The notes: generated from the letters alone by a model not told the origin. DNA of 64,000 nucleotides from Armatimonadota bacterium (GCA_025059775.1 JANXCW010000001.1:65588-129587); one strand, 5' to 3'; counted from the stretch's first letter, positions 9,723 to 33,762 are shown. Numbers and translations are program-made.

Positions 9723-9731
9723 CCAACGTCC

Positions 9732-15955: not shown

Positions 15956-17068
15956 ATGCGGATAGAGGCCGTGGAGCTCCGGGTGGTGGAGCTCCCGCTG
16001 CGGTTCCCCTTCGAGACGAGCTTCGGCCGTCAGACCGCCAAGCGCTGCATCCTCGTCACCGCCTACGCGGACGGGCTTGCGGGCTGGGGAGAGGTGCCGG
16101 TTTTTGCCGCCCCTCTCTACAACGAGGAGACCGTGGAAACCGCCTGGCACGTGCTGCGTGACTTCCTGATTCCCCTCCTCCAGGAACCCCTCCCGCACCC
16201 GGGGGAGTTTGCCCGCCGGGCGGCCCACGTCCGTCGGCACCACATGGCCAAGGCAGGCCTGGAGGCAGCCCTGTGGGACCTTTACTGCCAGGCGCAGAAC
16301 CTCTCCCTCAAACAGGCCCTGGGCGGAGTGCGGGACCGGATAGAGGTGGGAGTAAGCCTCGGGCTCGAGCCCACGGTCCCCGGCCTTTTGCGCCGCATCG
16401 AGGCCTTCGTGGATCAGGGCTATCGGAGGGTGAAGCTCAAGATCAGGCCCGGGTGGGACGTGGAAGTGGTACAGGCGGTGCGCCGGGCGTTTCCGGAGCT
16501 CCCCCTCCAGGTGGACGCCAACGCCGCGTACACCCTGGAGCAGACACCGATCTTTGAAGCCATGGACGGGCTCGGCCTCCTCATGATCGAACAGCCCCTG
16601 GGCGAGGCCGACCTCCTCGGCCACGCCCATCTGCAGCGCCGGCTGCGCACGCCCCTGTGCCTGGACGAGTCCATCGTGTATCCGCAGGATGCCCACCAAG
16701 CCATCGCGTTGGAGGCCTGTCGGGTGGTGAACATTAAGCCCGTGCGCCTGGGCGGGCTTGATGCCGCCCGAAGGACCCACGACCTCTGCGCGCGGCAGGG
16801 AGTCCCCGTATGGTGCGGCGGCATGCTGGAAACAGGGATCGGCCGGCTTACAAACCTCGCCCTCGCCTCTCTCCCGAACTTCCAGCTGCCCGCGGACCTC
16901 TCCACGAGCGACCGCTACTTCGAGGAGGACCTCATCGATCCGCCCGTGGTGCTCGGTCCCGACGGTACTATAGAGGTCCCTACGGAGGCGGGCGTCGCCC
17001 CCCGCGTGGACCTTCGCCGGGTGGAACGGATCACCCTGCGGAGGGAACGGTTTTCGCCGCGCGGCTAG
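15956..17068 (+). CDS. menC: o-succinylbenzoate synthase / N-acylamino acid racemase (enolase superfamily)
   Basis: FETSFG, KLKIRPG, VDANAAY, IEQPL, LDESI and WCGGMLETGIGR motifs. No other men genes are nearby, so racemase function is equally plausible. Confidence 0.85.
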   Translation: MRIEAVELRVVELPLRFPFETSFGRQTAKRCILVTAYADGLAGWGEVPVFAAPLYNEETVETAWHVLRDFLIPLLQEPLPHPGEFARRAAHVRRHHMAKAGLEAALWDLYCQAQNLSLKQALGGVRDRIEVGVSLGLEPTVPGLLRRIEAFVDQGYRRVKLKIRPGWDVEVVQAVRRAFPELPLQVDANAAYTLEQTPIFEAMDGLGLLMIEQPLGEADLLGHAHLQRRLRTPLCLDESIVYPQDAHQAIALEACRVVNIKPVRLGGLDAARRTHDLCARQGVPVWCGGMLETGIGRLTNLALASLPNFQLPADLSTSDRYFEEDLIDPPVVLGPDGTIEVPTEAGVAPRVDLRRVERITLRRERFSPRG

Positions 17069-17446
17069 CTACTGCACCACCAGGGTGCCCGTCATCCCGG
17101 CTTCCCTGTGCCCGGGCACGCTGCAGTAGAACACGCTGCAGTAGAAGGGGAAGGTTCCCTTGGCGGTGGGCGTAAAGGTCACCTTTCCGGACTGGCCGGG
17201 CTTGAGAAGCCCCATCTTCACCTTGAATTTCTCCAGCACGAAGTCGTGCTCGATGACGCCCTTGTTCTCCATGAGGAGCTCCACGGGCTGGCCGGCTTTC
17301 ACTGGGATCCTGTTGGGGGTGTAGGAGAACTCCTTGGCCTCCACCCTGATCCTCTGCGGGGCCGCGCCCGCATGGAGGGCCGTCCAGACCCCCAACACCG
17401 CACCCAGAATCCCCACCACCCCCAGGGCCGTCACCTTCCGCCACAT
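17069..17446 (-). CDS. Secreted type-1 copper cupredoxin
   Basis: Signal peptide, EHDF, and FYCSV-FYCSVPGHREAGM.G.L.V (His/Cys/His/Met ligands). Confidence 0.85.
   Translation of the reverse strand: MWRKVTALGVVGILGAVLGVWTALHAGAAPQRIRVEAKEFSYTPNRIPVKAGQPVELLMENKGVIEHDFVLEKFKVKMGLLKPGQSGKVTFTPTAKGTFPFYCSVFYCSVPGHREAGMTGTLVVQ
17117..17146. repeat. Perfect 15-bp tandem duplication inside the cupredoxin gene
   Basis: CACGCTGCAGTAGAA occurs at 17117-17131 and 17132-17146. Confidence 0.95.
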
Positions 17447-17531
17447 CTCCTCTCACCTCCCCAGGTGGAGTCTTCCCCGCCACCCTCTGCCACGCATCGG
17501 GCCGAGGCAGGATTTCGCGCCGGATTTTCGC

Positions 17532-18614
17532 CTATGGAGGCTGGTACGGACAGAGGGGATCGCTTTCGAGGGGATCGCCCGTGTGCGCATGGGCTCTGGC
17601 CCGGGAGCCTCCGCAGATCTCCCGGAAGGGACACCGGCCGCACTTGCCCCGCAGAAGGCCCGTATCCCGGATCCGCACGAACAGGTCCGCGTGCCGGTAC
17701 AGTTCCACGAGGCTATGCTCCCGCACGTTCCCCGCCCGAAGGGGCAGAAACCCCGAAGGGTACACCTCACCCGTGTGGGAGACGAAGACGATCCCGTTTC
17801 CGTCCCGGACCCCAAATCCCCGGCCCACGGGGGTCGAGGCGATGGCGGCCTCGCTGAGACCCCGGGTGCGCATGCGCAGAAACGCCACCCTCCGGTAGTG
17901 GGGGGCCTCCGTGGTCTTGATGGCAAAGGGCGCACGTGCGCCCAGGTCCAGGAGCCAGTGGCACAGCCGCTCTGCCTGCAGGGGCGTCACCTCCTCCAGT
18001 GCCTGCCCCCGGCCCACCCGGACCAGGAAGAAGAGACTCCAGCGGACAATGCCCAGTTCCCAGATCCGCTCATAGATAGCCGGAAGGTCCTCCAGGGTAG
18101 AGGCGGTGACGAGGGTGTTGACCTGGAGTTGAATTCCCTCCTCTCGGATTCGGTGCGCGAGGCGCAGGGTCCGTTCGAAGCATCCGGGAATGCCCCGCAG
18201 GGCATCGTGCCGCTCCGGGGTCGAGCCGTCCAGGCTGAGGGAGATGGCCTGCACGCCCGAACGTGCGAGGCGGCGGATGGCCGCATCCGTGACGAGGGGG
18301 GTTGCGCTGGGGGCAAGGGAAACGCCAAACCCCAGGGCCCGGGCCTCCTCCACGAGCTCCGCGAGGTCCGGCCGTTTGAAGGGATCCCCGCCCGTAAAGA
18401 CCCAGTGCGGAAGCGGGGGCCCGAAGGCTAGGGCGTCCCGGAGCATCCGGCGGCCTTCCTGGGTGGAGAGTTCGAGGGGGTGCCGCTCCGGAATGGCCTC
18501 CGCCCGGCAGTGGCGGCAGGCGAGGTCGCACGCCCGGGTGAGCTCCCAGTAGACGAGCAGCGGGGCCCGGTTGTAGACGTACCGGCGCTGGAGGATCGCC
18601 TCGGAGACGGCCAC
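17532..18614 (-). CDS. Radical SAM/SPASM protein (TIGR04053-like; AhbC/AhbD/NirJ-related)
   Basis: WELTRACDLACRHC (CxxxCxxC), TGGDP, YPSGFLP and CGRCPFREICGGSRARA. Confidence 0.85.
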   Translation of the reverse strand: MAVSEAILQRRYVYNRAPLLVYWELTRACDLACRHCRAEAIPERHPLELSTQEGRRMLRDALAFGPPLPHWVFTGGDPFKRPDLAELVEEARALGFGVSLAPSATPLVTDAAIRRLARSGVQAISLSLDGSTPERHDALRGIPGCFERTLRLAHRIREEGIQLQVNTLVTASTLEDLPAIYERIWELGIVRWSLFFLVRVGRGQALEEVTPLQAERLCHWLLDLGARAPFAIKTTEAPHYRRVAFLRMRTRGLSEAAIASTPVGRGFGVRDGNGIVFVSHTGEVYPSGFLPLRAGNVREHSLVELYRHADLFVRIRDTGLLRGKCGRCPFREICGGSRARAHAHTGDPLESDPLCPYQPP

Positions 18615-19334
18615 CTACCGACCCTCCCGCGTGAGCCCCTGCTCCCGCGCCCACACCCATACCTCCGGGGACCGCCGGAACCGGACCCCGAGCTTGCGCC
18701 GCACCCGGCGTACGTACTCCCGCACGGAGCCCTCCGTGAGTCCCAGGGTCCGGCCCACCGTGGTCCGAACCCGCTGGTCCGGCCCGTGGGCGGTGAGGTA
18801 GTACAGCACCAGCACCTCCACCTCCCGCCACGAAAGGCGGTAGCGGGTCCGCAGGCGCCGCAGGCCCTCTGGGGTGAGGCGGCCGTCCGCCAGGGCCTGC
18901 CGCACCACCCGGCTCGGCACCTCCTCCACCAGGACCCGCGCCTCCGGTGTGCGGGCGGGCAGGGCCTTCTGCACGAGCGCCGCAGCCAGACGCGCCATCT
19001 GCTCTGCCCGGGGTCGGGCCGTGCGGGGATTCCGGGCCAGCCACAGCTCCGCCAGCACCACCGCCTGGCGTGATCCGTTGCCCACAGGCACCACCAGGTG
19101 CGGCTTCGCATTCCTCGGACACACCCGCACGCCCGTGGTTTCCGGAGGCCCGCCGGCAAACGCCTGGGCCCCCTGACAGATCCCTCTCCACTCCGGCGCC
19201 TGCAGGCACGGGATGGTGTGCTGCCGCGGCGCCGCGAGGGGGGTGCCGTCCGAGGCGGCCACGAGGAGCGGGCAACCCGCTTCCTCGCTCAAGGCATCCA
19301 GGACTTGCGAGAAGGCCACTACGGGTTCCGCCAT
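18615..19334 (-). CDS. Putative one-component regulator: PocR-like sensor plus LuxR-like HTH
   Basis: N-terminal PC.....R.IC...VRVCP...HLVVPV pattern. C-terminal LSWREVEVL...LGLTEGSVREYVRRVRRKLG. Confidence 0.6.
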   Translation of the reverse strand: MAEPVVAFSQVLDALSEEAGCPLLVAASDGTPLAAPRQHTIPCLQAPEWRGICQGAQAFAGGPPETTGVRVCPRNAKPHLVVPVGNGSRQAVVLAELWLARNPRTARPRAEQMARLAAALVQKALPARTPEARVLVEEVPSRVVRQALADGRLTPEGLRRLRTRYRLSWREVEVLVLYYLTAHGPDQRVRTTVGRTLGLTEGSVREYVRRVRRKLGVRFRRSPEVWVWAREQGLTREGR

Positions 19335-19338
19335 GGTC

Positions 19339-19902
19339 TCACCCCACCAGGTACAGCGTGGGATAGATGAACACCCACGCCACGTCCACGAAGTGCCAGT
19401 ACTTCACCACCCCTTCCACGAGCCAGTAGTCGTCCGGCCCGTACCGGCCGCGACGGCCGTGCAGGTAGACGCCCAGCAGGAGCACCGCTCCGCTCAGCAC
19501 GTGCAGGCCGTGCAGCCCCGTGAGGGAGAAGAAGCTGGTGCCGTAGCGGGTCCCAGGCGGGAAGAAGTGGAAGCCCTCCACCCACTCCACCACCACGCCC
19601 ACCAGGAACACGCCCGCCAGCAGGATCGTCCACAGGGTGTTCCGCAGGAACCCTGCCCGGTCCCCGTGCGCGATGCAGGTCTCCGCCCGGTAGGCGGTGA
19701 GGCTGCTCAGGAGCAGCACCCCGGTGATGGCCAGTCCCAGAGGCTGATTCAGCTCCGGGGGCCGCTGGGTCCCCAGGTTCAGGTAGCGGGCCGCCACGAA
19801 GGCGCTGAAGAGCGCCGCCTCTGAGACGATGAAGAGCCACAGGCCCAGGCGCGCGTTCTGGAGTTCCTCCCGGGTGAGGCGAAGGGCGGCTTCGTGGCGC
19901 AT
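19339..19902 (-). CDS. ctaE: Heme-copper oxidase subunit III (short form)
   Basis: LWLFIVSE, T..LL.SS, FF.LTGLHGLHV and YWHFVDV.W motifs. Confidence 0.92.
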   Translation of the reverse strand: MRHEAALRLTREELQNARLGLWLFIVSEAALFSAFVAARYLNLGTQRPPELNQPLGLAITGVLLLSSLTAYRAETCIAHGDRAGFLRNTLWTILLAGVFLVGVVVEWVEGFHFFPPGTRYGTSFFSLTGLHGLHVLSGAVLLLGVYLHGRRGRYGPDDYWLVEGVVKYWHFVDVAWVFIYPTLYLVG

Positions 19903-19903
19903 G

Positions 19904-20098
19904 CTAGCCCTCCTCCCGTAACAGCTGCGAGGCGTGCATGAAGTACTCCGCGATGAGGGCGGTCTTTCCCAGGGCGATGAGCCCCAGCCACAGGAGGGAA
20001 CCGGGCCAGCGGGCCGCGAACCACTCCACCGCGGTGAGGGCCGCCAGTCCCGCGAACACCTGAACCCCCAGCCGGAACTTACGTGGCAACGGGCTCAT
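19904..20098 (-). CDS. ctaF: Heme-copper oxidase subunit IV
   Basis: Small two-TM protein with the K..LI..YFMH motif, lying between subunits I and III. Confidence 0.8.
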   Translation of the reverse strand: MSPLPRKFRLGVQVFAGLAALTAVEWFAARWPGSLLWLGLIALGKTALIAEYFMHASQLLREEG

Positions 20099-21923
20099 CC
20101 TCGCTCCCCCCCGTCACGCCGAGGACCGCATGCCGGATTCCGGGGATCCCGTACACGTAGGGCGGGCCCACCACCGCGGGCGGAGCGGGGAAGTTCTCCA
20201 CCGGTGGCGGGCTCGGCACCTGCCACTCCAGGGTGGAGGCCTCCCAAGGATTGGCCTCCGCCTGCGGCCCCCGGACCCAGCTCATGACGAAGTTGTACAG
20301 GAACACAAGGAAACTCATGCCCAGCAGGAAGGCCGCGATGCTGGTCCAGAAGTTCGTTCCACTCAAGGCCGTGGGGTAGTCCGCGATCCGCCGGTTCATC
20401 CCGTGCAGCCCCGCCCAGAACATGGGGAAGAAGGTCGCGTTGAAGGCCAGGAAGGTCCACCAGAAGTGCGCCCGGCCCAGCCGTTCGTCGTACATCCGGC
20501 CCGTGATCTTCGGGTACCAGTAGTACAGGGCCGCCAGAAGCGCGAAGATCTCCCCCCCCATGATGGTGTAGTGGAAGTGCCCCACCACGAAGTACGTGTC
20601 GTGCAGGTGCAGGTCCGTGGCCACGTCCGCGTTGAAGATCCCCGTGAGCCCGCCGATGAGGAAGTTCCACACCCATCCCAGGGCGAACAGCATGGGCGTA
20701 CGCAGCCACAACCTCCCCCGCACCAGGGTTCCCAACGCTCCCAGGAACACCAGGCCCGTGGGCACGGAGATGGCCTCCGTGGTGGCCATCATGGGCGCGT
20801 GCATCCAGTCGGGCATGCCGCTGGTGAAGTTGTGGTGGGCCCACACGATCCCGCTGAGCCCTACGATGCCCAGGAACCCTCCCACCACCCACCGGTAGGC
20901 GTACAGGGGCGTGCGGGCGAAGTGGGTGATGACCTCCAGAGCGGCGCCGAAGGCGGGCAGGATCATGATGTACACCGCGGGGTGGGAGTAGAACCAGAAC
21001 AGCTGCTGGTACACCACGGGAGTGCCTCCGCGGGCGAAGTGGAAGTAGCTCATCCCCGCCACCCGGTCCAGGAGCACCATGAGGAGGCTCGCGGCCAGGT
21101 ACTGGGTGAAGATGAAGCTCAGCAGGGATGCCGCGAACACGGACCAGACGAACACGGGGAGCCGGCTCCACGTCATGCCCGGCGCCCGCATGCGGGCGAT
21201 GGTCACGAGGAAGTTGATCCCGCCGAGGATGCTGGAGAGTCCGAACACGACCACGGCCACGATCATGAGAACCTGGCCCGGTGCGTTCACCGCGCTCAGC
21301 GGTGGGTAGGCGGTCCACCCGGAGTCCCACCCGCCCACGAAGAGGCTCGCCAGCAGCATGACGGCCACGGGCGGGGTGAGCCAGTAGCTGAGGGCGTTCA
21401 CCCGGGGGAAGGCCATGTCGTGGGCGCCGATCATCAAGGGCACCAGGTAGTTCCCCAAGCCCCCCAGGAAGATGGCCACGGCCACCGCGATCATGACAAT
21501 ACCGTGCAGACTCATCACCTGGTTGTAGCCGTTGAGGGTCAACAGCTGCATTCCCGGGCGCATGAGTTCCCAGCGCATGAGCATGGCCAGCAGCCCGCCC
21601 AGGAAAAAGAGTCCCAGGAAGGTCACCAGGTACTGGATCCCGATCACCTTGTGGTCCGTGGTGAACCGGAAGTAGCGGGCCACGCTCTTGTCCTCGGGCC
21701 ACGGACGCAGCGGAAGGCCGAACCAGCCCCGGGCCCACACCTCCCACATGCCTACCCCCGCCAGCCAGCCCACCGTGCCCAGGACGGCGCCGGTGGCGAG
21801 CTCCAGATCGAAGGAGAACGTCGCCCCTGTTGCGCGCACCAGTCCCGCGAGCACCGGGCCGCCCGCCACGTAGCCGACCGCGCCGTACAGGAGTCCTCTC
21901 AGGATAGGAGCCACCACCTGCAT
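20079..21923 (-). CDS. ctaD: Heme-copper oxidase subunit I, A2-type (YSHPxVY), with an atypical K-channel
   Basis: DHKVIG, SLHG, DMAFPRVN, FWFYSHPAVY, WAHH, HDTYFVVGHFHY and GMNRR. All six His ligands and the cross-link Tyr are present. Confidence 0.95.
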   Translation of the reverse strand: MQVVAPILRGLLYGAVGYVAGGPVLAGLVRATGATFSFDLELATGAVLGTVGWLAGVGMWEVWARGWFGLPLRPWPEDKSVARYFRFTTDHKVIGIQYLVTFLGLFFLGGLLAMLMRWELMRPGMQLLTLNGYNQVMSLHGIVMIAVAVAIFLGGLGNYLVPLMIGAHDMAFPRVNALSYWLTPPVAVMLLASLFVGGWDSGWTAYPPLSAVNAPGQVLMIVAVVVFGLSSILGGINFLVTIARMRAPGMTWSRLPVFVWSVFAASLLSFIFTQYLAASLLMVLLDRVAGMSYFHFARGGTPVVYQQLFWFYSHPAVYIMILPAFGAALEVITHFARTPLYAYRWVVGGFLGIVGLSGIVWAHHNFTSGMPDWMHAPMMATTEAISVPTGLVFLGALGTLVRGRLWLRTPMLFALGWVWNFLIGGLTGIFNADVATDLHLHDTYFVVGHFHYTIMGGEIFALLAALYYWYPKITGRMYDERLGRAHFWWTFLAFNATFFPMFWAGLHGMNRRIADYPTALSGTNFWTSIAAFLLGMSFLVFLYNFVMSWVRGPQAEANPWEASTLEWQVPSPPPVENFPAPPAVVGPPYVYGIPGIRHAVLGVTGGSEDEPVAT

Positions 21924-21927
21924 GCGC

Positions 21928-22722
21928 CTACCTCCGTGCCTGCTGCGCCACCCAGGCCTCAAACGCTTCCGGCTCCACCACCCGCACGGGGGCCGCCATG
22001 ATGCCATGGCCCACGCCGCACAGCTCCGCGCACTGCACCCGCAGGTCCGCGCTCTGTTCGAACGAACCCACGCGGGTCGGCGTCACGCGCAGGTAGGTGG
22101 TCAGGTTCGGCACCGCGTCGATCTTGGTGCGGAAGGCAGGCACCCAGAAGCTGTGCACGATGTCCACGGAGGTCACCTCGAAGCGCACCCGGCGGCCGGC
22201 AGGCAGAACCAGCTCCCGCGCGGTGACGTTGTGCTCCGGGTACTCGAACTGCCACAGCCACCGGCTGGCCCGGACCCGGACCACCAGCTCCCCGCCCGGG
22301 GGGAGCGACGGGAGTCCCACCGCCGCGTACCGGCCTCGGGCCAACAATCCCCCAAGGGGCACTCCCCGCATCTCCGCGAGCCCCACAAGTCCAGGGTTGT
22401 AGACCACGTAGACGCACAGGGCCGCGGTGAGGACGAACCATGTGCGGGGGATGGCGGGGTGCTCGGGGGTGTACGGGGGAGCTTCCGGTGGATCTCCCCG
22501 GCCACGCCGGGCCAGGAGCACGTACACGAGCACGGAGACCACCGCGGCGAACACAGGGCCGGCGAGCAGCATGAGGAGGCGGAAAGCGTGATCCGCCACC
22601 TCCGCCTCCCGTGCCGCGCTCAGAGGAAAGGCGTCGAATCGGGATGCCGCAAGCAGGAACAACGCACTGAACACCGCCCACAGGGCCACCAGGACTCCCG
22701 CGCGCATACCTTCCGGCTCCAC
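21928..22722 (-). CDS. ctaC: Heme-copper oxidase subunit II with CuA site
   Basis: Two TM helices, WLWQFEYP, DIVHSFWVP and CAELCGVGHGIM. No fused cytochrome c. Confidence 0.93.
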   Translation of the reverse strand: MEPEGMRAGVLVALWAVFSALFLLAASRFDAFPLSAAREAEVADHAFRLLMLLAGPVFAAVVSVLVYVLLARRGRGDPPEAPPYTPEHPAIPRTWFVLTAALCVYVVYNPGLVGLAEMRGVPLGGLLARGRYAAVGLPSLPPGGELVVRVRASRWLWQFEYPEHNVTARELVLPAGRRVRFEVTSVDIVHSFWVPAFRTKIDAVPNLTTYLRVTPTRVGSFEQSADLRVQCAELCGVGHGIMAAPVRVVEPEAFEAWVAQQARR

Positions 22723-22975
22723 GGGGTTTGGTTGACTCTACGTGAACACACGAAGTGCACGTGGGACATCAGTCCAGGACCTGATTTTGAGGGGAGCTGA
22801 GGTCGGGTCCGGGCCCGATGCGCCTGGGAACGTTTGTACTCCGAAGCACCCCCAGGAGGAATTTCCGGACGGAAGGGCGAACCTCACGGGTACTTGCAGG
22901 GTCGCGTGGATCCCCTCCCCAGCCGATGCACACTGTGCCCGCGACCTCCCTATCTTCAGGGTGGGAGGTGAGAAC

Positions 22976-23473
22976 ATGACGGGCCGGCCCGCGGACGCGA
23001 GGAGGCACCGCCGGGTGGTGCAGGAGTTCGAGGTGGATGCCCGCGTGAATCCCGAGCGCGTGCAGGCCCGCGTGGAGAACGGGGTGGCCATTCTCACCGG
23101 ACGCGTGAGCGGAGCAGTGGAGAAGTTCGCGGCTCAGGAAGCCGCCCACCGGGTCCCCGGAGTTCTGGACGTGGTGAACCACCTGAGCACGCAGGGGTTT
23201 CATCCCGCCCCTGCAAGCGACCTGGAGCTCGTGCGGGCCGTCCGGCGCGTCCTGCGCCGTCACCTCCCTACCCATCAGCGGGTGCGGTCCGCGGTGGAGT
23301 GCGGGTGGGTCACCCTCACGGGTTCGGTACCCTCCCGAGAGGATCGGGAGCGGGTGGAGCAGCTCGTGCAGGCGATCCCGCAGGTTCGGGGAGTGGTGAA
23401 CATGCTGGCCATCGAGGGCTCCTGTGCACCGGCTAGTCCTGCACGCGGGGCTAGGGCCCCACGTGCAGGGTGA
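22976..23473 (+). CDS. Dual BON-domain protein
   Basis: Two V..G.V.LTG.V...E...A......VPGV..V.N.L repeats. GGAGG RBS before the ATG at 22976; no signal peptide from that start. Confidence 0.8.
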   Translation: MTGRPADARRHRRVVQEFEVDARVNPERVQARVENGVAILTGRVSGAVEKFAAQEAAHRVPGVLDVVNHLSTQGFHPAPASDLELVRAVRRVLRRHLPTHQRVRSAVECGWVTLTGSVPSREDRERVEQLVQAIPQVRGVVNMLAIEGSCAPASPARGARAPRAG

Positions 23474-23828
23474 AGGTGGCGAGGATCCGCACGCCCTCCG
23501 CCTCCCCCGCTACTTTTATCTCCCACCGGCCGTCCATGGAGAAGGTGTGTTGGGCTTCGTAGCGCCCAGGGCCCGTCTGCCGGAAGAGGATCTCCTCCGG
23601 CTCGTGGGTCATCTCGGGCATGGAGGCCCGGACCTGGAGGTTCGTGACCGCGAGAGGGCGGCCGGAGTCGTCCCCGATCCGCAGTCGCAGGGTGGCGGGC
23701 TGGAGTGCCCGAGGTCGGGTGGGAGCCCATTCCAGGGAGGCCCTCCACCCCTCTCCACCGACCCGGGCTGTGGGGTTCGGGGTGCACGCCCCGAGGAGCA
23801 GGGTAAGGAGCAGGAGAGCCCACCTCAC
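23451..23828 (-). CDS. YtkA/FixH-like lipoprotein
   Basis: Lipobox LLGAC, SMPEMTH, GRYEA...FSMDGRWEI. GTGA overlap with the nosY stop codon. Confidence 0.7.
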   Translation of the reverse strand: MRWALLLLTLLLGACTPNPTARVGGEGWRASLEWAPTRPRALQPATLRLRIGDDSGRPLAVTNLQVRASMPEMTHEPEEILFRQTGPGRYEAQHTFSMDGRWEIKVAGEAEGVRILATFTLHVGP

Positions 23829-24649
23829 GGGCGCACGACTCGGGTAAACCTCAGGTGGCCCACCGCGTAGCTCACCCCGCTCCACCCGCCGAGTATCGCC
23901 AGCAGGGCCAATAGGGCGCCCGTCTGCCCCAGCCGGTCTACCGCGAGCAGGGCCAGGGGGCCCAGGAGCTCGGGGCTGTGGGTCACGAGCAGGATCCCGC
24001 TCATGCGGAAGGCGGAGAGGGGGTTCAGGGCGGCCAGCAGGAGCACCGCCCAGGACGGAAGCCGCAGGCTCAGCGCGGCCCCCAGCACCCCGAGATCCCC
24101 TAGCACCCCGAACCCCAGCCACGCCAGCAGGGCCCAGCCCAGGGCCCTCCCTCGGGTGGGCGCGAAGGCGGAGATCAGGAGCCCCACGGAGAGCATGGAA
24201 AGCGCCAGCAGGCTCGAAAGGCCCACTAGGGCCAAAAAGGTGCCCCCGTGCTCCGCGCCCGCGCCCCAGGCGAGCACAATCCCCGCACCCCCGTATCCGA
24301 GCCAGATGGCCGACAGCACCGAGGCCGCCAGTCCCACGTACCGTCCCGCGTACAGGGCACCGCGGGAGATGGGCTGGGCCAGCAGGAACTCCAGGGATCC
24401 GGTTTCCCGATCCCCTGCCAGCCACCCCGCGCCCAAGGTAAGGCCCAAAAGGGGGATGAAGAGCTGCGCGAGGTGCAACAGGGCCGCCGCGGCCCGGTCA
24501 AAGGAGGAGAGTCCGACCACCCGGAGACCTGCCAGGGCGGTGAAGGCGGCTCCGAGGGTGAGGGCCCAGAAGGCGAAGGCCAGGGAGAGAAACCACCGGT
24601 CCCTCAGGCTCGCCCGCGCGTCCCATCGGGCCAGGATGAGGGCGGTCAT
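23825..24649 (-). CDS. nosY: NosY ABC transporter permease
   Basis: LRDRW, PLLGL.LG...LAGDRETGSLEFLLAQPISR and NPLSAFR motifs; nos context. Confidence 0.88.
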   Translation of the reverse strand: MTALILARWDARASLRDRWFLSLAFAFWALTLGAAFTALAGLRVVGLSSFDRAAAALLHLAQLFIPLLGLTLGAGWLAGDRETGSLEFLLAQPISRGALYAGRYVGLAASVLSAIWLGYGGAGIVLAWGAGAEHGGTFLALVGLSSLLALSMLSVGLLISAFAPTRGRALGWALLAWLGFGVLGDLGVLGAALSLRLPSWAVLLLAALNPLSAFRMSGILLVTHSPELLGPLALLAVDRLGQTGALLALLAILGGWSGVSYAVGHLRFTRVVRP

Positions 24650-25488
24650 GCGCGTACCCCCCGCATAAAGTCCTCCACCTCGGGCTCGTGCACCCGGAAG
24701 GGCAGACCCCGGAGGAGCGGCAGGAGCTCGGGGAGAGCGGCATTCGGTACCCGCAGGCGCACGGTGCCGTTGCGGCTCGCGATCACCTCCACCCCCGCGG
24801 GCAGATGCTCCGGCTGCGCCCCTTGCACCACCACCTCCACCCAGTACAGACGCCACAGTTCGCCGGCGGGGACGTCCGCCACCACCTTTCCACCTTCCAG
24901 CACCACCACCCGATCCACGAGCTGCTCCAGGCGCCGCAGGTGGTGGCTCGCCACCACCACCGTCTTCCCCGTCGCCGCCTCCAGCCAGCTCGCCAGCCAC
25001 TCCTCCCCTCCCCGGTCCAGGTAGCTGGTGGGCTCGTCCAGTGCCAGCACCGGTGGATCCCCCACGAGGGCCACCGCGATCCCCAGCCGGCGGAGCATGC
25101 CGCCAGAGAGGCACACCACGGGCTTGCCCCCGTGCCCTTGAAGACCTGCCCGTTCCAGCAAGGGCCAGGGGTTTGGCACTTCTCCCCGCAGCTCCTGGAC
25201 CAGGGCCACCACCTCCGCGGCCGTGAGGTGGAGAGGAAAGGCAGGAAGCTGCGGGACGTAGCCCACGAGCCGCCGGGCCACGGCCCCCTGACGCCGGACG
25301 TCGTAGCCGCCTACGGTCACCTTACCCTCGTACGGCACCAGATCCAGCAGACAACGCAGCAGGGTGGTCTTGCCCGCACCGTTCGGGCCCAGGAGGGCTA
25401 CCCGCTGCCCCGGAGACACCTCCAGGCTCACCTCCTCCAATACCGCCCGGTTCCCAAACCGCACCGTGACTCCCTCCCAGCGGATCAT
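24646..25488 (-). CDS. nosF: NosF ABC transporter ATPase
   Basis: GPNGAGKTT, LSGGMLRR and LDEPT motifs; ATGA overlaps on both sides. Confidence 0.9.
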   Translation of the reverse strand: MIRWEGVTVRFGNRAVLEEVSLEVSPGQRVALLGPNGAGKTTLLRCLLDLVPYEGKVTVGGYDVRRQGAVARRLVGYVPQLPAFPLHLTAAEVVALVQELRGEVPNPWPLLERAGLQGHGGKPVVCLSGGMLRRLGIAVALVGDPPVLALDEPTSYLDRGGEEWLASWLEAATGKTVVVASHHLRRLEQLVDRVVVLEGGKVVADVPAGELWRLYWVEVVVQGAQPEHLPAGVEVIASRNGTVRLRVPNAALPELLPLLRGLPFRVHEPEVEDFMRGVRA

Positions 25489-26813
25489 CCCCCCACCTCC
25501 CACCGCCGCGACCTCCGTACCCACCACACCACACCGAGACCCAACAGGGCGACCCCCAGGCCGTGGACGGCGAAGGCGGCCGAGCGCTTCTCCTCGAGGA
25601 ACTCCGGGGGTACCGTGGGGTGCACGAGCGGCTTGGGATCCACCAGCACCTGGTGGGGAGCGAACAGGGGGAATGCGCGGGAGGCCAGTTCCACCGCCTG
25701 CAGGCCGGGACTCGCGTGGAGCAGGCCCGCGGCGGGCACGTTCTCCGATGCGGACTCGAACCACCGTCGCAGGCGGAAGGGGAGTTCTCCAACCCCATCC
25801 CCGTCCAGATCCACCCCCGCGTACTCGTCCCAGGAGTTCCTCTCCCACCGGTTGCGAGCACTCGCCCCGCCCTCCACGCGCAACGTCTCCCGGTTCACCG
25901 CAAAGGTGTTCTGGGTGAAGATGTTGCCCGAGGCGTTGGTGAGGAGGAGCAGGCCGACCGCGTTCCCGGCCACCACGTTCCCCTCGAATCGTCCGCGCCC
26001 TTCTCCTCCCATGGGGGTGGCGTCCAGGTACAGCCCCACGTGGTTCCCCACCAGCGCGTTGGCGCGCACCTGTACCTCGTCCGACTCCTTGAAGGCCAGG
26101 CCCACCCCCGGCACGTCCCGGTTGTGGAGGAAGCGGTTCCCCTCCACCCGGACGCCCGCGCTGTACATGACGTACGCGCCCACGGCGTTCCCCTCCAGGG
26201 TGCTGTCCAGCAGAGGCGTGCGGTGCGCGTACATGTAGTGCACGCCGTACCGGGAGTTGCGGACGCGCAGCCGGTGCAGCACCGACCCCTCCGTGAACCA
26301 CAGCAGGACGTCCCGCATGCTCTCCACGTCAAGATCCGTGAGGACGACCCGCTGGCTGTACCACAGCCGCACCGCGTCCCCCCGCCGGTTCAGCGGCAGG
26401 GGCTTTCCGGAGAGCCGCACCCGCCGCACCACGGCCCCGTCCGCCTGCTTGAGGTTCAGGCCGAACAGCACGTCCTCCAGCACCAGGTCTTCCAGCACCA
26501 CCCCAGCAGCGCCCACGAACACCCCCGCGTCCTCCGTGTTCAGCTCGGAGCCGCTGGCTCGGATGCGCAGCCGGCCCAGGTACACACCCGGTGCTTCGAT
26601 CCGCACCACGGTCCCCTCTCCGCCCCCGTCCACCACCGCTCCGGGCTCTCCCACGATCCGCAGCGGCTTGCGCACCACCACCGGACCCCGCACCACCCCC
26701 CGGACCACCACCTCCGAGCCCGCGGGAGCCGCGTCCACCAGAACCTGCAGGCTCGGCACAGACCCCGCCGCGGGCAGCACGGCCAACGGCAGAACCACCC
26801 ACAGCCAGCTCAA
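25485..26813 (-). CDS. nosD: NosD periplasmic copper-insertion protein
   Basis: Beta-helix repeats, RGDAVRLWYS, RYGVHYMY, N.WDEY.G.DLDGDGVG and LVDPKPL. TTG start. Confidence 0.92.
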   Translation of the reverse strand: MSWLWVVLPLAVLPAAGSVPSLQVLVDAAPAGSEVVVRGVVRGPVVVRKPLRIVGEPGAVVDGGGEGTVVRIEAPGVYLGRLRIRASGSELNTEDAGVFVGAAGVVLEDLVLEDVLFGLNLKQADGAVVRRVRLSGKPLPLNRRGDAVRLWYSQRVVLTDLDVESMRDVLLWFTEGSVLHRLRVRNSRYGVHYMYAHRTPLLDSTLEGNAVGAYVMYSAGVRVEGNRFLHNRDVPGVGLAFKESDEVQVRANALVGNHVGLYLDATPMGGEGRGRFEGNVVAGNAVGLLLLTNASGNIFTQNTFAVNRETLRVEGGASARNRWERNSWDEYAGVDLDGDGVGELPFRLRRWFESASENVPAAGLLHASPGLQAVELASRAFPLFAPHQVLVDPKPLVHPTVPPEFLEEKRSAAFAVHGLGVALLGLGVVWWVRRSRRWEVGG

Positions 26814-27424
26814 CGGGCCGCCACCTCCGCGGGCCCCGCTACAGGTCGCGCCCGCTCCGCCCGCGGCTGCCTACAGTACAGGTCGCACAGCGCCACCAGA
26901 CTTGCCAGCAGCGCCAAGTAGAAGCCCACGTGGAAGGTGGCCACGGTCCGGAACTGGGCGATCACGCCGCTGCCCAGGACCACTGGCATGAAGGGCTCCA
27001 GGCGGATCGGGGCTGCGGGATCCATGGAGTGGCCGTAGTACCACAGCCAGGCGCTCAGGTCCGCGAAAAAGCCCAGGGGGAACAGCACGAGGGGCAACCG
27101 CAGCAGCCAGCGCCAGGGTTCTCGCTGGGTGCCCGAGGCCACCGCCAGCGCTCCGAACAGCAGTACCAAGGGCACCGCCATCGCCCGCTCCACGGGCGCT
27201 GCGTCCTCCAGGGGCTTCATGCCGATGTAGTGGTTCAGAGTGCTGATCTCCTCCGCGTCCCCCGCCACGTGGGTCAGGTAGACCATCGCCCGCAGACCCC
27301 CGGGGTACTGGGGCGCGTACAGGCTCAGCTGCCAGTACGGAAAGAACAAGGAGGCCGCCAGCAGCCCGGCCGCCACCAGCAGCCACCGGACCCCACCTCC
27401 GCGTCTCCCTCTCTCACCGTTCAA
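26810..27424 (-). CDS. nosB: NosB-like membrane protein of clade II nos clusters
   Basis: W.L.L.APQYP.GL...GD..EI..LNHYIGM motif, directly downstream of nosZ. GGAGGT RBS before a TTG start. Confidence 0.8.
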   Translation of the reverse strand: MNGERGRRGGGVRWLLVAAGLLAASLFFPYWQLSLYAPQYPGGLRAMVYLTHVAGDAEEISTLNHYIGMKPLEDAAPVERAMAVPLVLLFGALAVASGTQREPWRWLLRLPLVLFPLGFFADLSAWLWYYGHSMDPAAPIRLEPFMPVVLGSGVIAQFRTVATFHVGFYLALLASLVALCDLYCRQPRAERARPVAGPAEVAAR

Positions 27425-27443
27425 CTGCGTACCTCCCAGAACC

Positions 27444-27473
27444 GCTGGGGGCGGGCAAAAGCCCGCCCCCAGC
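27444..27473 (-). repeat. Perfect 13-bp stem-loop between nosZ and nosB, with no U-tract in the sense direction
   Basis: GCTGGGGGCGGGC-AAAA-GCCCGCCCCCAGC. Confidence 0.85.
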
Positions 27474-27481
27474 TTCCTCCC

Positions 27482-29458
27482 CTACGGCTCGATCTCCAGG
27501 TAGCCCATCATCTCCAGGTGCAGCGCGGAGCAGAACTCCGTGCAGTAGAAGGGGTACACGCCCGGCCGCTCTGCCCGCAGAACCACCGTCTCCGTCTTCC
27601 CGGGTTCCAGGCTCAGGTTCACGTTGTGCCGGTCGATGGCGAACCCGTGGATCGCGTCCTTCGTCCGTTCCACATTCGTCAGATGGAAGATCACCGTGTC
27701 GCCCCGCTTCACCCGCACCCGATCCGGTACGAAGTGGCTCCTGAGGACGGTCATATACACCCGTACCGTCCGCCCCTCCCGCACGATCCGGGACTGTCCG
27801 GGCTTCGTCGCGTGTGGGTCGGGCCGCATGGTCCGCGGGTTGGTGCCCGTCGGGTACACCTCCCACGGCCGCAGCCGGTCCATCCGGATGATCTGCGCCA
27901 GGTGCGGCTCCCCGATCCCGATGGGCATGTTGTACAGCAGCTTCATCTCGTCCCCGCTGATGTCGATCAGCTGGAAGTTCTGCGGCAGTAGCGGTCCGAC
28001 GTTCTTGTACTGGTCCACGGACCACTTGTTGAGAGCCACCAGGTACTTGCCGCCCGGCTTCACCGTGTCACCCTCCACTGCGGTCAGGTGGCCGATGTTG
28101 TACTGGACCGGCAGCTTCTGCACCAGCTTCCACCCACGGTCTGCCGGGTTGTATGGCGGCCCCAAGGTCCACTTGGCGACCGCGCTGTCCAGGAACAGGC
28201 TGGTGTACGCGTTCCCCTTGTCGTCGAACATCGTGTGGAGCGGCCCCAAGCCCAGCTTCACCTGAGCCGCCACAACCGCGTCGAACTTCAGGATGGGTAC
28301 CCCGTAGTCGTCCCGACCAGCGAACGCCTTGTTGCGGATGGCTTCCTGGATCTTCCGGAAGCTGTAGACGGTGACGTTGGGGTCCAACTTGCCGCCCACC
28401 ACGATGTAGTCGCCCCGTGGGGCCACATCCAGCCCATGGGGGCTCTTCGGCTCCGGCGCCAGGTACAGGATGCCTGCTTCCACCGCGTCCCGCAGCCGGA
28501 TCACCTTCATCCCGTTGACCACGGTGTACCGGCCCTGGGCCACGAGCTGCTCGGCCCGCCTCCAGTTCACGATGTGCAGGTAGTCCATGTCCCGGGCCGA
28601 CGCACCCACCTCGATGGGCGGCCTCTTCTCGAGGGTACCCCCGATCGCCCGCTCACTGTTGAAGGAGTTCCAGAACGCCCACCCGTCGCTCTCGAGCTTG
28701 CCGAAGTCCGCCAGGTCCTGCCAGTAGGGCGGGAGTTCAATCTGGAAAGACTTACCGACGTCGATGCGCCCGGTCCCCCGGTCGAACTTCCAGAAGGTCG
28801 CGAGTCCCCGGTAGTGCCGGTTGTAGTTCTCCTGCGTGAGCGGCACGTACCGGAAGGGGAAGGGCGCCGCGTACTGGGTCACCTCCAGCACGTACTCCGT
28901 GTTGGGGCTCACCACGGCACCGTGGTTGCTCACCGCATTGGGGTTGGTGACGATCTGCTTGGTGGCGAAGTCCCGGAGGTCGATGACCGCGATGCGGCTA
29001 CCCGCCTTGTCGTTGATGAACAGCCACTTGCCGTCGTACTCCCCGTTGGTCTCGCTCAGGGCCGGGTGGTGGGTGTCCCCCCACGCCAACCGTGGATCCT
29101 TGCTCCTCCACCCGAGGATGGTCTCGGTTTCCTCGGAGCCCACCCCGTACCCCTGCCAGGGTTCCGGGGCGAACACGCCGATCACCCGCAACAGCCGCAT
29201 GGAGGGGATTCCGATTACCAGGACCTGTCCGCCCTGCCCGGCCGACGAGAACATCAGGTACTCGTCGTGCTTGCCGGGAGGCACGTACGTCTGGATAGCC
29301 GCCCGGACCTGGTCCGGGGTCAACCCCTTGGCCTCGATGAGGCTCTGCACGTCTTGGGGCAGGGTTCCTGCCCGCTGGGCCTGCCCTGCCAGGGAGACCC
29401 CCAGCACCACCGCCGTGGTCACCGCCACGAGCCCGATGAGAGTCCTCTCCCACTTCAT
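27482..29458 (-). CDS. nosZ: Nitrous-oxide reductase, clade II (Sec-dependent)
   Basis: Sec-type signal with no twin Arg. CuZ His motifs DTHH, NHG, PHG, GPLH, IGH and EPH. CuA motifs IHGF and CTEFCSALHLEM. Confidence 0.96.
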   Translation of the reverse strand: MKWERTLIGLVAVTTAVVLGVSLAGQAQRAGTLPQDVQSLIEAKGLTPDQVRAAIQTYVPPGKHDEYLMFSSAGQGGQVLVIGIPSMRLLRVIGVFAPEPWQGYGVGSEETETILGWRSKDPRLAWGDTHHPALSETNGEYDGKWLFINDKAGSRIAVIDLRDFATKQIVTNPNAVSNHGAVVSPNTEYVLEVTQYAAPFPFRYVPLTQENYNRHYRGLATFWKFDRGTGRIDVGKSFQIELPPYWQDLADFGKLESDGWAFWNSFNSERAIGGTLEKRPPIEVGASARDMDYLHIVNWRRAEQLVAQGRYTVVNGMKVIRLRDAVEAGILYLAPEPKSPHGLDVAPRGDYIVVGGKLDPNVTVYSFRKIQEAIRNKAFAGRDDYGVPILKFDAVVAAQVKLGLGPLHTMFDDKGNAYTSLFLDSAVAKWTLGPPYNPADRGWKLVQKLPVQYNIGHLTAVEGDTVKPGGKYLVALNKWSVDQYKNVGPLLPQNFQLIDISGDEMKLLYNMPIGIGEPHLAQIIRMDRLRPWEVYPTGTNPRTMRPDPHATKPGQSRIVREGRTVRVYMTVLRSHFVPDRVRVKRGDTVIFHLTNVERTKDAIHGFAIDRHNVNLSLEPGKTETVVLRAERPGVYPFYCTEFCSALHLEMMGYLEIEP

Positions 29459-29943
29459 CTCCCTTCACCTCCCTTGCGTTCGTTCGTTTCGGACCCGGGA
29501 AGCCAGAAGGGACTCCGAAGCTCCGGGGGATCCCGGGCCCACCAGGGTTCCAGAAGGGCGTCCAGGGTGATCCGACCCAGGGCCTCTACCAGCTGCGGCC
29601 GCACGCCCGCCCACACCGGGTGCAGCACGCACGGCCGGTCCTCCGAACAGCGGCTATCCCAGAACACGCACCGCCGGAAATAGTCCGGGCCCTCCACCGC
29701 CTCCAGAACCTCCCGAACGGAGATCTCGCGGGGAGAGCGGGTGAGGGCGTATCCGCGGCTGCGGCCCCGGGAGGAGCGCAGCAGCCCCAAGCGCACCAAC
29801 CGTCGCAGGGTCTTGCTCAGGAACTCCCGGGGAAGCCCGCAGGCCTGCGCTACCCGCGAGGCCGGGGCCGCTTCTCCTCCCGAAAGCCCCGCGAGGTAGC
29901 TGAGAGCCCGCAGCGCGTACTCCGTCTCCCGGGTCAGACGCAC
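29455..29943 (-). CDS. Rrf2-family regulator with a three-Cys Fe-S motif
   Basis: TEYALRAL, L.K.LRRL, S.RGR..GY.L and C-x6-C-x5-C-x2-H. Stop codon overlaps the nosZ ATG (ATGA). Confidence 0.88.
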   Translation of the reverse strand: MRLTRETEYALRALSYLAGLSGGEAAPASRVAQACGLPREFLSKTLRRLVRLGLLRSSRGRSRGYALTRSPREISVREVLEAVEGPDYFRRCVFWDSRCSEDRPCVLHPVWAGVRPQLVEALGRITLDALLEPWWARDPPELRSPFWLPGSETNERKGGEGR

Positions 29944-30287
29944 GACGCACTCCGAAAACGACTCCGCCGGTCCAAGGCCTCCCGGGGCCACAGGTCCAGC
30001 GGATCTTTTGGATCCGATGCCACGGTAAGGGCTGACGGGCCCCACCGCCATCCGACGGGGAACCGATTTCCCAAGGGAGCGAGAATCCGACGCGGGACCG
30101 ATCCTCCATGCCCGCGGGATCTCATGGACCTTCCCGGATCCGGCATAAGGCGGACAGATCCATCCTCCACCCGAGGGGGAAATCGGGTCCGCACCGGATG
30201 CCCGAATTCCGGAGCCCATGAGAGAAGTGGTGCGTAAGCCCGCGCCTGAAGGGGGGGCGCGGGCTAGTGTGCTTGCCGGAGGAAGGT

Positions 30288-30947
30288 ATGCTCGTCCAAG
30301 ATGTGATGACCGCGAACCCGGTGACCACGGCCCCGCAGGCACCCCTACAGGAGGCCCTGGAGCAGATGCAGAGCCTTCGGGTTCGTCATCTCCCCGTGGT
30401 CTGGGGCAACCGGCTGGTGGGCGTGGTGACGTGGACGGACATCCTGCGGGCAGCCCTTCCGCCCCTGGCGTCCGGGGAAGCGGACCGCCCTCCTGTCCTT
30501 CCGCACAATCTCACGGTTTCCGAGGTGATGACCCGCGAGGTGATCACCATCTCCCCGCAAGCCACGGTGGAGGAGGCGGCGACCCTCCTGCGCCGGCACC
30601 GAATCGGTTGCCTTCCCGTGCTGGATCGGGAACAGCTGGTGGGAATCGTTACCAAGAGCGATCTCTTCGACGCCCTGGTCTACCTGCGGGGCGGAGATCT
30701 GGACGGCGTCCGGCTGTCCGTGGCCCTGCCGGGAGGGCTGGAGGATCTCCATCGCCTGGTGCAGGCCCTCCGGACCCTGCAGCCGAACCGCTGGGGACTT
30801 GTCCTTTCCGTGCGCCTGGATGGGATGATTAAGCGGGCGGATCTGTGCGCTACAAATGTCCCACCCCTGGTGCTCGCGGAACACCTGGCTGCGGCGGGGC
30901 TCCACCCCTTCCATCTCCGGTTCCGGGTACCCACCAAGTCCCGGTGA
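30288..30947 (+). CDS. CBS-domain pair protein with an ACT-like C-terminus (AcuB-like)
   Basis: V.DVMT.NP, RHLPVV, IGCLPV and GIVTKSD motifs. Confidence 0.85.
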   Translation: MLVQDVMTANPVTTAPQAPLQEALEQMQSLRVRHLPVVWGNRLVGVVTWTDILRAALPPLASGEADRPPVLPHNLTVSEVMTREVITISPQATVEEAATLLRRHRIGCLPVLDREQLVGIVTKSDLFDALVYLRGGDLDGVRLSVALPGGLEDLHRLVQALRTLQPNRWGLVLSVRLDGMIKRADLCATNVPPLVLAEHLAAAGLHPFHLRFRVPTKSR

Positions 30948-33754: not shown

Positions 33755-33762
33755 GTGGCGCC

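Follow-up and report, generated by a model that had tools for sequence, protein, structure and literature searches.

A common operator predicted over neighbouring nitrous oxide reductase, oxidase and cupredoxin units in an Armatimonadota bacterium

A 64-kb stretch of DNA from a heat-loving Armatimonadota bacterium (GCA_025059775.1, JANXCW010000001.1:65588-129587; the window, by which we mean the whole stretch) carries between positions 17,069 and 29,943 the genes for a nitrous oxide (N2O) reductase, a CuA-containing oxidase, a radical SAM enzyme and a small blue-copper protein, or cupredoxin. We propose that three adjacent, separately promoted respiratory units here form one regulon and that the cupredoxin feeds the CuA centre of NosZ, a reading to which we give a probability of roughly 55%. 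Unit 1, rrf2-nosZ-nosB-nosDFY-ytkA, would be a minimal clade II N2O reductase system with a YtkA-like lipoprotein in the place of NosL. Unit 2, cox2-cox1-cox4-cox3-regulator-radical SAM, would encode a CuA-containing A-family oxygen reductase together with an AhbD-type haem synthase that may supply the oxidase with haem when O2 is scarce, and unit 3 is predicted to comprise a secreted type-1 cupredoxin. Because the same 18-bp palindrome precedes each unit, one dimeric transcription factor probably turns on all three, the candidates being a NarL/DosR-type protein such as the unit 2 regulator, or the Rrf2 protein, and the likely trigger being the oxic-anoxic transition. The cupredoxin would carry electrons from a quinol-oxidising complex to NosZ CuA, in the role of the NosC cytochrome, and may also feed the CuA of the oxidase. 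What is new is the combination of a common operator over clade II nos genes, an A-family oxidase lacking the K-channel lysine (K-less) whose operon includes an anaerobic haem synthase, and a cupredoxin, as well as the comparative evidence for a cupredoxin filling the NosC slot.

Co-regulation of nos, cox and cupredoxin is predicted because the three units have in common an operator not found elsewhere in the window. Comparison of upstream regions, those of rrf2 in ten relatives and those of cox2 in three, brought out a recurring 18-bp palindrome, ATCSG-N8-CSGAT, with CATCGGGTCCGGACCCGAT as its best copies and CATCGGGTCCGGACCCGATT as the shared box sequence; the operator usually consists of two boxes, with AAAA before the proximal one. 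The strict motif has three matches in the 64 kb, all in the divergent intergenic region between rrf2 and a CBS-domain gene. With a position weight matrix (PWM) built from 25 rrf2 and cox2 sites, high scores in the window are confined to the upstream regions of rrf2, cox2 and the cupredoxin gene (Table 1), the next best site reaching 12.9. The same matrix gave maxima of 10-17.6 on 20 shuffled windows and, in a control of 2.19 Mb of unrelated loci, six sites of at least 16.5 (about 2.7 per Mb), three of at least 18 and none of at least 22. Among the compared relative loci, which are labelled by L numbers, the rrf2 boxes are kept in L081, L096, L098-L105 and L108, and orthologous cox2 boxes from L094, L104 and L091 formed part of the training set. 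Sites held out of training comprise the cox2 boxes of L176/177 (26.0 and 29.6) and of L178-180 (23.2), the latter with no adjacent nos, the cupredoxin box kept in L176/177 (16.7), and boxes at orthologues of the cupredoxin gene that stand alone, at 9 kb from nos, in L099 (27.7) and L101 (27.1). Held-out boxes are also seen at the nos-neighbouring CBS gene in L081, where strong ones lie just upstream of it, and in intergenic regions beside CBS and regulator genes in L083 and L086. L100, L101 and L105 have boxes equivalent to those of L081, at some 3.3 kb upstream of rrf2, and the CBS gene of the window probably belongs to the same regulon. Adjacent or not, the nos, cox and cupredoxin units thus appear, from these predicted sites, to be in one regulon. 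The earlier note on this DNA had tied the oxidase functionally to N2O respiration, and that tie stands as predicted co-regulation and falls as conserved linkage (see below). In L008 and L010, rrf2 lies upstream of cox2, yet neither the palindrome nor a PWM site was found there. A similar palindrome, CCATCCGGCCCTTACCGGATG, is seen about 210-230 nucleotides (nt) upstream of nosZ (56% NosZ identity) in L152 (9769-9794) and L155 (8719-8744); the two sites are identical, account for two of the three control sites of at least 18, and may hint at an older association of the regulator with nos.

By its sequence, the cupredoxin is a secreted small type-1 copper protein. It has the ligand pattern H...C-x4-H-x4-M common to the nosZ-adjacent cupredoxins of relatives, with IEHDF...C-SVPG-H-REAG-M conserved in L094, L176, L083, L084 and L089; inspected by eye, the window protein has a hydrophobic N-terminal signal and a lipobox, AACGG, is present in its homologues from L083 and L089. 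Cupredoxins 35-42% identical to it adjoin nosZ in the order rrf2-cupredoxin-nosZ in L083 and L089/90 and cupredoxin-rrf2-nosZ in L084/85/106, a further one in this identity range follows ytkA in L107, and another cupredoxin, of the plastocyanin/azurin family, lies upstream of nosZ in L115. In most relatives with 54-62% NosZ identity, it is a c-type cytochrome gene that stands immediately upstream of nosZ, which is the position of NosC in Bacillota (PMC3475470; bioRxiv 10.1101/2024.05.17.594689). Since it occupies the NosC slot in relatives, the cupredoxin is best read as a NosZ donor. A scan with Cox1 of 185,579 species genomes gave 80 oxidase loci, the neighbourhoods of which were checked within 10 kb, and a cupredoxin match away from cox2 turned up at one of them (L009). 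The cupredoxin tracks nos and is probably the donor to NosZ, replacing NosC; the earlier proposal that it reduces NosZ CuA gains plausibility from homologues that adjoin nosZ in several relatives, in what is, for most of the distant ones sampled, the cytochrome c slot. Donation to oxidase subunit II is a plausible candidate route as well, given that this subunit has CuA and no haem c domain and that no cytochrome c gene lies nearby. Separately, a two-domain multicopper protein (Cu-oxidase_3 and Cu-oxidase_2, 379 residues; 8472-9611 in L086) is encoded directly upstream of nosZ in L086-L088, replacing rrf2 and cupredoxin; it may be a nitrite reductase of the NirK type, and a CBS-BON gene with operator boxes precedes the multicopper gene in these loci.

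Several points weigh against one regulon with a cupredoxin donor. The closest NosZ relatives (L081/82, L097, L100, L105 and L108) have no cupredoxin within about 10 kb, so that donor genes can lie far from nos, and L091-93 and L178-180 have cox-regulator-radical SAM sets with no cupredoxin nearby, so that the oxidase needs no adjacent cupredoxin gene. A-family oxidases are usually of low affinity, which makes them a poor fit to a low-oxygen regulon. The matrix was trained on rrf2 and cox2 sites, its scores for these are circular, and the specificity scan and held-out sites alone count as evidence. A consensus scan gave no sigma-70-like promoter, and terminator-like matches stayed at chance level, these results being uninformative in an organism of high G+C (GC) content. 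Lastly, a duplication of five residues (FYCSV) in the copper-ligand loop could impair the cupredoxin of the window. A perfect 15-nt tandem duplication, TTCTACTGCAGCGTG twice, is found in its gene (17117-17146, minus strand) and turns FYCSVPGH into FYCSVFYCSVPGH, which doubles the ligand cysteine to give C-x4-C-x4-H-x4-M. The cupredoxins of L094, L176 and L177 are without it; it may have arisen recently by mutation in this strain, perhaps to the detriment of the protein, or it may be an artefact of assembly.

Conserved as such are the two units rrf2-nosZBDFY-ytkA and cox2-1-4-3-regulator-radical SAM; as they recur apart in relatives, their juxtaposition is limited to one narrow clade. The full layout of the window recurs in L094, L104, L176 and L177 (independent assemblies; Cox1 88-93% identical). 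Sister lineages L091-93 and L178-180 (Cox1 88-90%) hold cox2-1-4-3-(regulator)-radical SAM without nos or cupredoxin, and an Armatimonadota genome at 72% identity holds cox alone. Seen from the nos side, no oxidase follows ytkA in most loci with 88-93% NosZ identity (L081/82, L097, L098/99, L100, L105 and L108), and a window-type oxidase was found at none of about 65 nos loci at 54-76% NosZ identity. Of the 80 oxidase loci, all in other genomes, none carries nosZ, nosB, nosD or nosY within 10 kb; the 16 closest of these loci (52-68% Cox1 identity, N-terminal extension kept) are from Chloroflexota, Actinomycetota and Acidimicrobiia metagenome-assembled genomes (MAGs). The earlier note had described a single copper-respiration island, a description that fails as one of conserved linkage, and an oxidase usually unlinked to nos, which it had itself named as the outcome to be set against it, is largely what the comparison of loci shows. 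The adjacency might therefore be a neutral rearrangement accident in one clade, with the units independent and the cupredoxin serving one of them, most likely NosZ, an explanation we consider somewhat unlikely. The confinement of linkage to loci of 88-93% Cox1 identity, the lack of nos at the other oxidase loci, the sister lineages that retain the oxidase unit without nos (insertion sequence (IS) elements adjoining that of L091) and the missing oxidase at most of the nearest NosZ loci all favour it, as does the cupredoxin, which recurs with nos far more than with this oxidase. The downstream border is variable too: an MR/MLE (enolase superfamily) gene at 15797-17068 (plus strand) abuts the cupredoxin stop in the window and is also present in L176/177, L094 lacks it and has GYD directly after the cupredoxin, and this presence and absence among relatives marks the border as a recent insertion or deletion site. 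Against such an accident stands the operator, placed before all three units and before nothing else in the 64 kb. Relatives in which nos, cox and cupredoxin are unlinked still have it at each of these, which argues for shared control whatever the origin of the adjacency.

On its sequence motifs, we take the oxidase to be an oxygen reductase from an unusual subgroup of the A family. Cox2 has the CuA site H...CAELCGVGHGIM and no CXXCH, hence no fused cytochrome c. In Cox1, translation and alignment to PDB 2yev reveal HPAVY, AHH and HFHY, with the six metal-binding histidines and the His-Tyr pair present, together with the D-channel HDMAFPRVN and an A2-type YSHPAVY, in which Tyr-Ser takes the place of the helix VI glutamate. 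The K-channel lysine is replaced, with PTGLVF in the window versus PTGVK in the caa3 oxidase of Thermus (PDB 2yev) and PTGIK in mycobacterial aa3. All 120 nearest Cox1 homologues (P0121-P0240), of which several are named as Chloroflexota, Actinomycetota or Armatimonadota proteins, likewise have YSHPAVY and lack this lysine (PTG[LVIM][VI]F). Window Cox1 and the closest genome loci have some 90 extra N-terminal residues, and the score of the window protein against TIGR02891, the CtaD/CoxA equivalog, is 611.5 bits, below the cut-off of 670.75. With the canonical K-channel lysine missing throughout and the score under the cut-off, one may ask whether the enzyme primarily respires O2 at all: it might be an A-family-derived nitric oxide (NO) reductase, or an O2 scavenger protecting NosZ, whence its regulon with nos. 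The Rrf2 regulator that leads the nos unit, the rrf2 genes upstream of cox2 in L008 and L010, and the L083 locus, where divergent genes of the COX1 family and a small CuA-like subunit, perhaps an NO reductase, come after the nos cluster, point the same way. We nevertheless hold this alternative to be improbable, because Cox1 has HPAVY, the histidines of CuB and haem, the Asp/Asn of the D channel and the Tyr-Ser of the A2 type, and because the family occurs widely among loci of Chloroflexota, Actinomycetota and Armatimonadota without nearby nos. These Cox1 motifs are features of proton-pumping oxygen reductases, and an oxygen reductase is the assignment we prefer. As to L083, the set in question (17152-21253) lies downstream of nos and comprises the small CuA-like protein, the two divergent COX1-family genes (563 and 454 residues) and a second rrf2, 55% identical to that of the window, where the rrf2 before nosZ in L083 is 31% identical; the CuA-like/COX1 genes may form a CuA-type NO reductase module. 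The L083 oxidase located 7 kb from nos was rejected as an orthologue of the window oxidase, being 41% identical and without the N-terminal extension.

The radical SAM/SPASM enzyme encoded in the oxidase unit falls in TIGR04053, a family on which a literature search found no papers. Its second-best NCBIfam match is AhbD (TIGR04545), at 296 bits and so below the cut-off of 500. A homologue of 65% identity is situated in a hemC-hemD-hemB-hemA-hemL-[radical SAM]-hemE-ferrochelatase-hemY operon (L181-183) and one of 60% in hemCD-hemB-hemL-hemE-ferrochelatase-[radical SAM]-hemY (L184), and no ChdC-like gene was seen in these haem-operon stretches. AhbD is the oxygen-independent (anaerobic) coproheme decarboxylase in coproporphyrin-pathway bacteria (PMC13564367). 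As the homologues take the slot of the missing decarboxylase in coproporphyrin-pathway operons, we infer the window enzyme to be an AhbD-type oxygen-independent coproheme decarboxylase, that is, a haem b synthase. Its position inside the oxidase operon suggests that the oxidase is made at low O2, when O2 is too scarce for the aerobic haem route. The earlier note had counted this enzyme as a part of copper respiration; going by its haem-operon homologues, it belongs with the haem supply of the oxidase and has no special tie to copper or nos. Many SPASM enzymes are peptide maturases, weaker NCBIfam matches of the window enzyme include PqqE, MftC and sactipeptide maturases, and its gene lies directly upstream of the cupredoxin gene, all of which would suit a maturase of peptides or proteins, with the adjacent cupredoxin or a subunit of the oxidase as its substrate. 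We regard this as highly improbable in view of its best characterised relatives, the tetrapyrrole enzymes AhbD, NirJ and AhbC, of the 60-65% homologues at the place of the missing decarboxylase, and of the cox and radical SAM genes that occur in L091-93 and L178-180 without any cupredoxin. Haem synthesis remains the function that we assign to it. Compared with AhbD itself (PMC13564367), the likeness lies in a radical SAM/SPASM family found in hemE-hemH-hemY operons with no ChdC-like gene in the stretch seen, and the difference in that the window enzyme is of the sister family TIGR04053, misses the AhbD cut-off and is encoded in an oxidase operon.

The regulator gene between cox3 and the radical SAM gene had been described as PocR/LuxR-like, and a PocR domain was not detected in its product even at E<=5. 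At its C-terminus, where the HTH would lie, the protein gives a GerE match of 16.2 bits (E=0.008), below the cut-off of 23.5, and a five-sequence profile of it, run against the PDB, retrieves the DNA-binding domain of NarL (E=0.003) and DosR (0.07); its N-terminal domain has the invariant residues C43, C53 and H79. The gene is kept after cox3 in L094, L104, L176-180 and L095, with a remnant in L091: in this cox-only locus, the radical SAM open reading frame (ORF; 8902-10137) has an N-terminal stretch, THYRLSWRALEVQVLYDV, that is what remains of the regulator gene, so that this locus lost the regulator by deletion and retained the operator boxes of cox2. Transposase genes (IS21 and rve) are located upstream in L091. 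DosR/DevR is the regulator of the hypoxia regulon in Mycobacterium tuberculosis and has a NarL-type helix-turn-helix (HTH). A DosR-like hypoxia or NO regulon is the most attractive reading of the window operator. It would be in line with the NarL/DosR-type HTH of the cox operon regulator, with the GAF-HisKA_3 kinase, Usp and CBS genes that adjoin nos in relatives, and with the half-site TCGGGTC, which resembles what we take to be the DosR half-site, TSGGGAC. Shared with DosR/DevR would be a putative NarL-type HTH, a palindromic box and the kinase, Usp and CBS surroundings; unlike it, the box spacing in the window is 2 bp shorter, the cox-operon regulator has no receiver domain, and the proposed regulon would hold terminal reductases for both O2 and N2O. 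A second, nos-specific palindrome, GGAYCC-N4-GGRTCC (GGATCCAAAAGATCC), is located at 30001-30016, about 70 nt before rrf2 and between the shared boxes and this gene, and is found some 65-72 nt upstream of rrf2 also in L081, L096, L100 and L103-L105. It was not found in the cox2 or cupredoxin promoters, is of low specificity, with four other matches in the window, and could be an Rrf2 autoregulatory site that adds a layer of control to nos.

Turning to unit 1, the window NosZ is a Sec-dependent nitrous oxide reductase of clade II. The TAT (twin-arginine translocation)-type model TIGR04244 scores it at 409 bits, far under TIGR04246 (Table 1), and its N-terminus, MKWERTLIGLVAVTTAVVLGVSLAGQAQ, is by eye a Sec-type signal with no RR or twin-arginine; the CuA motif is CTEFCSALHLEM. 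The closest relatives of the protein, at 72-93% identity, include some named as Armatimonadota MAG proteins. The rrf2 stop overlaps the nosZ ATG (ATGA), an rrf2 gene precedes nosZ in close relatives, and the Rrf2 translation displays three cysteines, C-x6-C-x5-C. The NosB-like protein has no match in Pfam or NCBIfam, neither of which has a curated NosB model; a homologue of its gene follows nosZ in nearly every locus that extends far enough, and its translation has about four hydrophobic segments, such as are described for NosB (bioRxiv 10.1101/2024.05.17.594689). nosDFY is recognised by sequence as an ABC-type maturation module. No cluster ORF matches the NosL family; a YtkA-like lipoprotein gene stands at the operon end instead and ends the nos unit in every relative of at least 66% NosZ identity whose locus extends beyond nosY. 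This lipoprotein has a lipobox cysteine and an invariant MPEMxH...YEAxHxFSMxGxW (seven orthologues), its profile against the PDB finds 9ll2, a 'Copper resistance protein' (E=1.9e-8) and, weakly, the cbb3 biogenesis protein CcoH, and it is a reasonable candidate for a copper chaperone in NosL's stead. In L177 (1253-2304), the layout of which resembles that of the window, nosY is split into ORFs of 196 and 121 residues, which may reflect a frameshift or pseudogene or an assembly error.

The known system nearest in layout is the atypical clade II cluster of Gram-positive bacteria, nosC-nosZ-ORF-nosDYF-ORF, of Geobacillus thermodenitrificans NG80-2 and Bacillus azotoformans (PMC3475470). As there, a Sec-type NosZ is followed by a membrane ORF (nosB), NosDFY and a trailing small ORF, with no nosR or nosX. 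Unlike there, no NosC cytochrome c lipoprotein precedes nosZ, its slot holding a cupredoxin in relatives and the cupredoxin of the window lying 10 kb off behind the oxidase; an Rrf2 gene comes first, the order is D-F-Y and the trailing ORF encodes a YtkA-like copper-binding lipoprotein. Clade II NosZ, NosB and NosDFY are also shared with the nos system of Wolinella succinogenes (NosGH, NosC1/C2, NosB; Hein et al. 2017 via bioRxiv 10.1101/2024.05.17.594689). The cluster of the window differs in lacking both a NosG/H menaquinol dehydrogenase module and NosC cytochromes, and its NosZ bears no cytochrome c domain; it therefore does not encode a path for electrons from quinol to NosZ.

Clade I denitrifiers employ pseudoazurin or azurin as a donor to NosZ. 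The window is similar in that we propose a small type-1 copper protein as the reductant of NosZ CuA; it is different in that its NosZ is of clade II and Sec-exported, in that the cupredoxin is PF13473/plastocyanin-like and in some relatives lipoprotein-anchored, and in that the donor assignment is drawn from synteny and the common operator only. Among cupredoxins linked to an aa3 oxidase is rusticyanin, with the rus operon. Others are AcoP of Acidithiobacillus (PMC10804444) and the auracyanin of Chloroflexus, which goes with alternative complex III and cytochrome oxidase (PMC3150298). AcoP and auracyanin, as blue-copper proteins encoded with or acting on CuA A-family oxidases, set a precedent for a low-cytochrome-c route to O2, but these systems keep c-type cytochromes, serve iron oxidation or phototrophy and have neither a tie to N2O nor a nos/cox operator. 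A diel metatranscriptome of hot-spring Armatimonadota (PMC11788075) makes no mention of nitrous oxide or denitrification and concerns a population without detected anaerobic respiration.

A further-reaching proposal, which we put forward tentatively and think rather unlikely, is that of a respiratory branch free of cytochrome c, in which one blue-copper protein would serve both the clade II NosZ and the K-less A-family oxidase under a DosR/NarL-like hypoxia operator that also governs an oxygen-independent haem synthase. If true, the terminal reductases for O2 and N2O would be installed as one package at the oxic-anoxic boundary. The electron supply of clade II reducers lacking NosGH and NosC, and the coordination of N2O reduction with O2 respiration, influence which organisms serve as N2O sinks under fluctuating O2, and the locus offers handles on both: a defined 18-bp operator, a candidate non-haem donor in the NosC slot and a candidate copper chaperone replacing NosL. 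In addition, the uncharacterised family TIGR04053 gains a likely function, that of a coproheme decarboxylase which works without O2, and a widespread A-family oxidase subfamily without the K-channel lysine is brought to attention.

The genes and operator sites are collected in Table 1. At about 69% GC, most long ORFs of the window are spurious, and genes were therefore called by codon-position GC, followed by confirmation with Pfam and NCBIfam. Armatimonadota MAGs are named as the source of several among the proteins most similar to NosZ, Cox1 and the radical SAM enzyme. Every gene named in the earlier note was recovered, with exact limits (cupredoxin stop at 17069, rrf2 GTG start at 29943), and its description of all genes but BON as minus-strand, with many overlapping stop and start codons, agrees with the map. 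The nos junctions are 4-nt overlaps save for a 57-nt gap between nosZ and nosB, and those from cox2 to the radical SAM gene lie between an overlap of 20 nt and a gap of 4 nt. BON and ytkA converge with an overlap of 23 nt, BON and cox2 diverge across 268 nt, and the cupredoxin gene follows the radical SAM gene after 85 nt. Taken together as a single operon, the block does not hold up: BON intervenes between nos and cox and the 85-nt gap precedes the cupredoxin, which makes for at least three transcription units. The reported absence of nosL, nosR, nosG/H, SCO and ctaA/B is borne out, none of them being matched in the cluster or in the other scanned ORFs of the window, and the same goes for cytochrome c, as no credible CXXCH gene was found in the whole 64 kb. 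Two ORFs were discarded as spurious by codon-position GC and translation, one at 23275-23823 over the ytkA region and one at 19779-20024 over the ctaF region, the ytkA-like and cox4 genes lying in other frames.

Table 1. Genes and predicted operator sites in and beside the nos-cox-cupredoxin region; positions are those of the window.
Feature	Position	Strand	Matches and remarks
rrf2	29455-29943	-	PF02082, 107 bits; first gene of nos unit; GTG start
nosZ	27482-29458	-	TIGR04246, 840 bits (cut-off 625)
nosB-like	26810-27424	-	polytopic membrane protein; no Pfam/NCBIfam match
nosD	25485-26813	-	PF05048 NosD
nosF	24646-25488	-	PF00005 ABC_tran
nosY	23825-24649	-	PF12679 ABC2_membrane_2
YtkA/FixH-like lipoprotein	23451-23828	-	PF13115, 40 bits
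BON-domain protein	22976-23473	+	PF04972, 85 bits
cox2	21928-22707	-	PF00116, 52 bits; CuA, without cytochrome c domain
cox1	20079-21923	-	PF00115, 465 bits
cox4	19904-20098	-	PF03626; 64 residues
cox3	19339-19902	-	PF00510; short
regulator	18615-19334	-	weak GerE-type HTH; 239 residues
radical SAM/SPASM enzyme	17532-18614	-	TIGR04053, 462 bits (cut-off 395)
cupredoxin	17069-17446	-	PF13473, 53 bits; PF00127, 36 bits; 125 residues
CBS-domain protein	30267-30947	+	PF00571, 122 bits; divergent from rrf2
three operator copies, rrf2/CBS region	30046-30203 (cores 30050-30067, 30085-30102, 30182-30199)		best-strand PWM 20.0-28.4
operator boxes upstream of cox2	22764-22823 (strong core 22768-22785, degenerate box 22798-22823)		PWM 27.1, 10.6
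operator box in the 85-nt gap between radical SAM and cupredoxin genes	17492-17517		PWM 16.9; held out of training

An Rfam scan of the window matched just three tRNAs, all of them distant from the cluster; in the long leader of rrf2 it detected no RNA element. A BON gene is found near nos in most close relatives, with or without cox. Beside the cluster, at 31082-40023 (plus strand), lie redox genes of anaerobic type, encoding a ferredoxin, subunits of a 2-oxoacid:ferredoxin oxidoreductase, FAD (flavin adenine dinucleotide)/Fe-S proteins with MvhD (FlpD) and CCG (HdrB-like) domains, and the alpha and beta subunits of an electron-transfer flavoprotein (ETF); pyruvate:ferredoxin oxidoreductase (PFOR) genes are also present near nos in L086 and L099.

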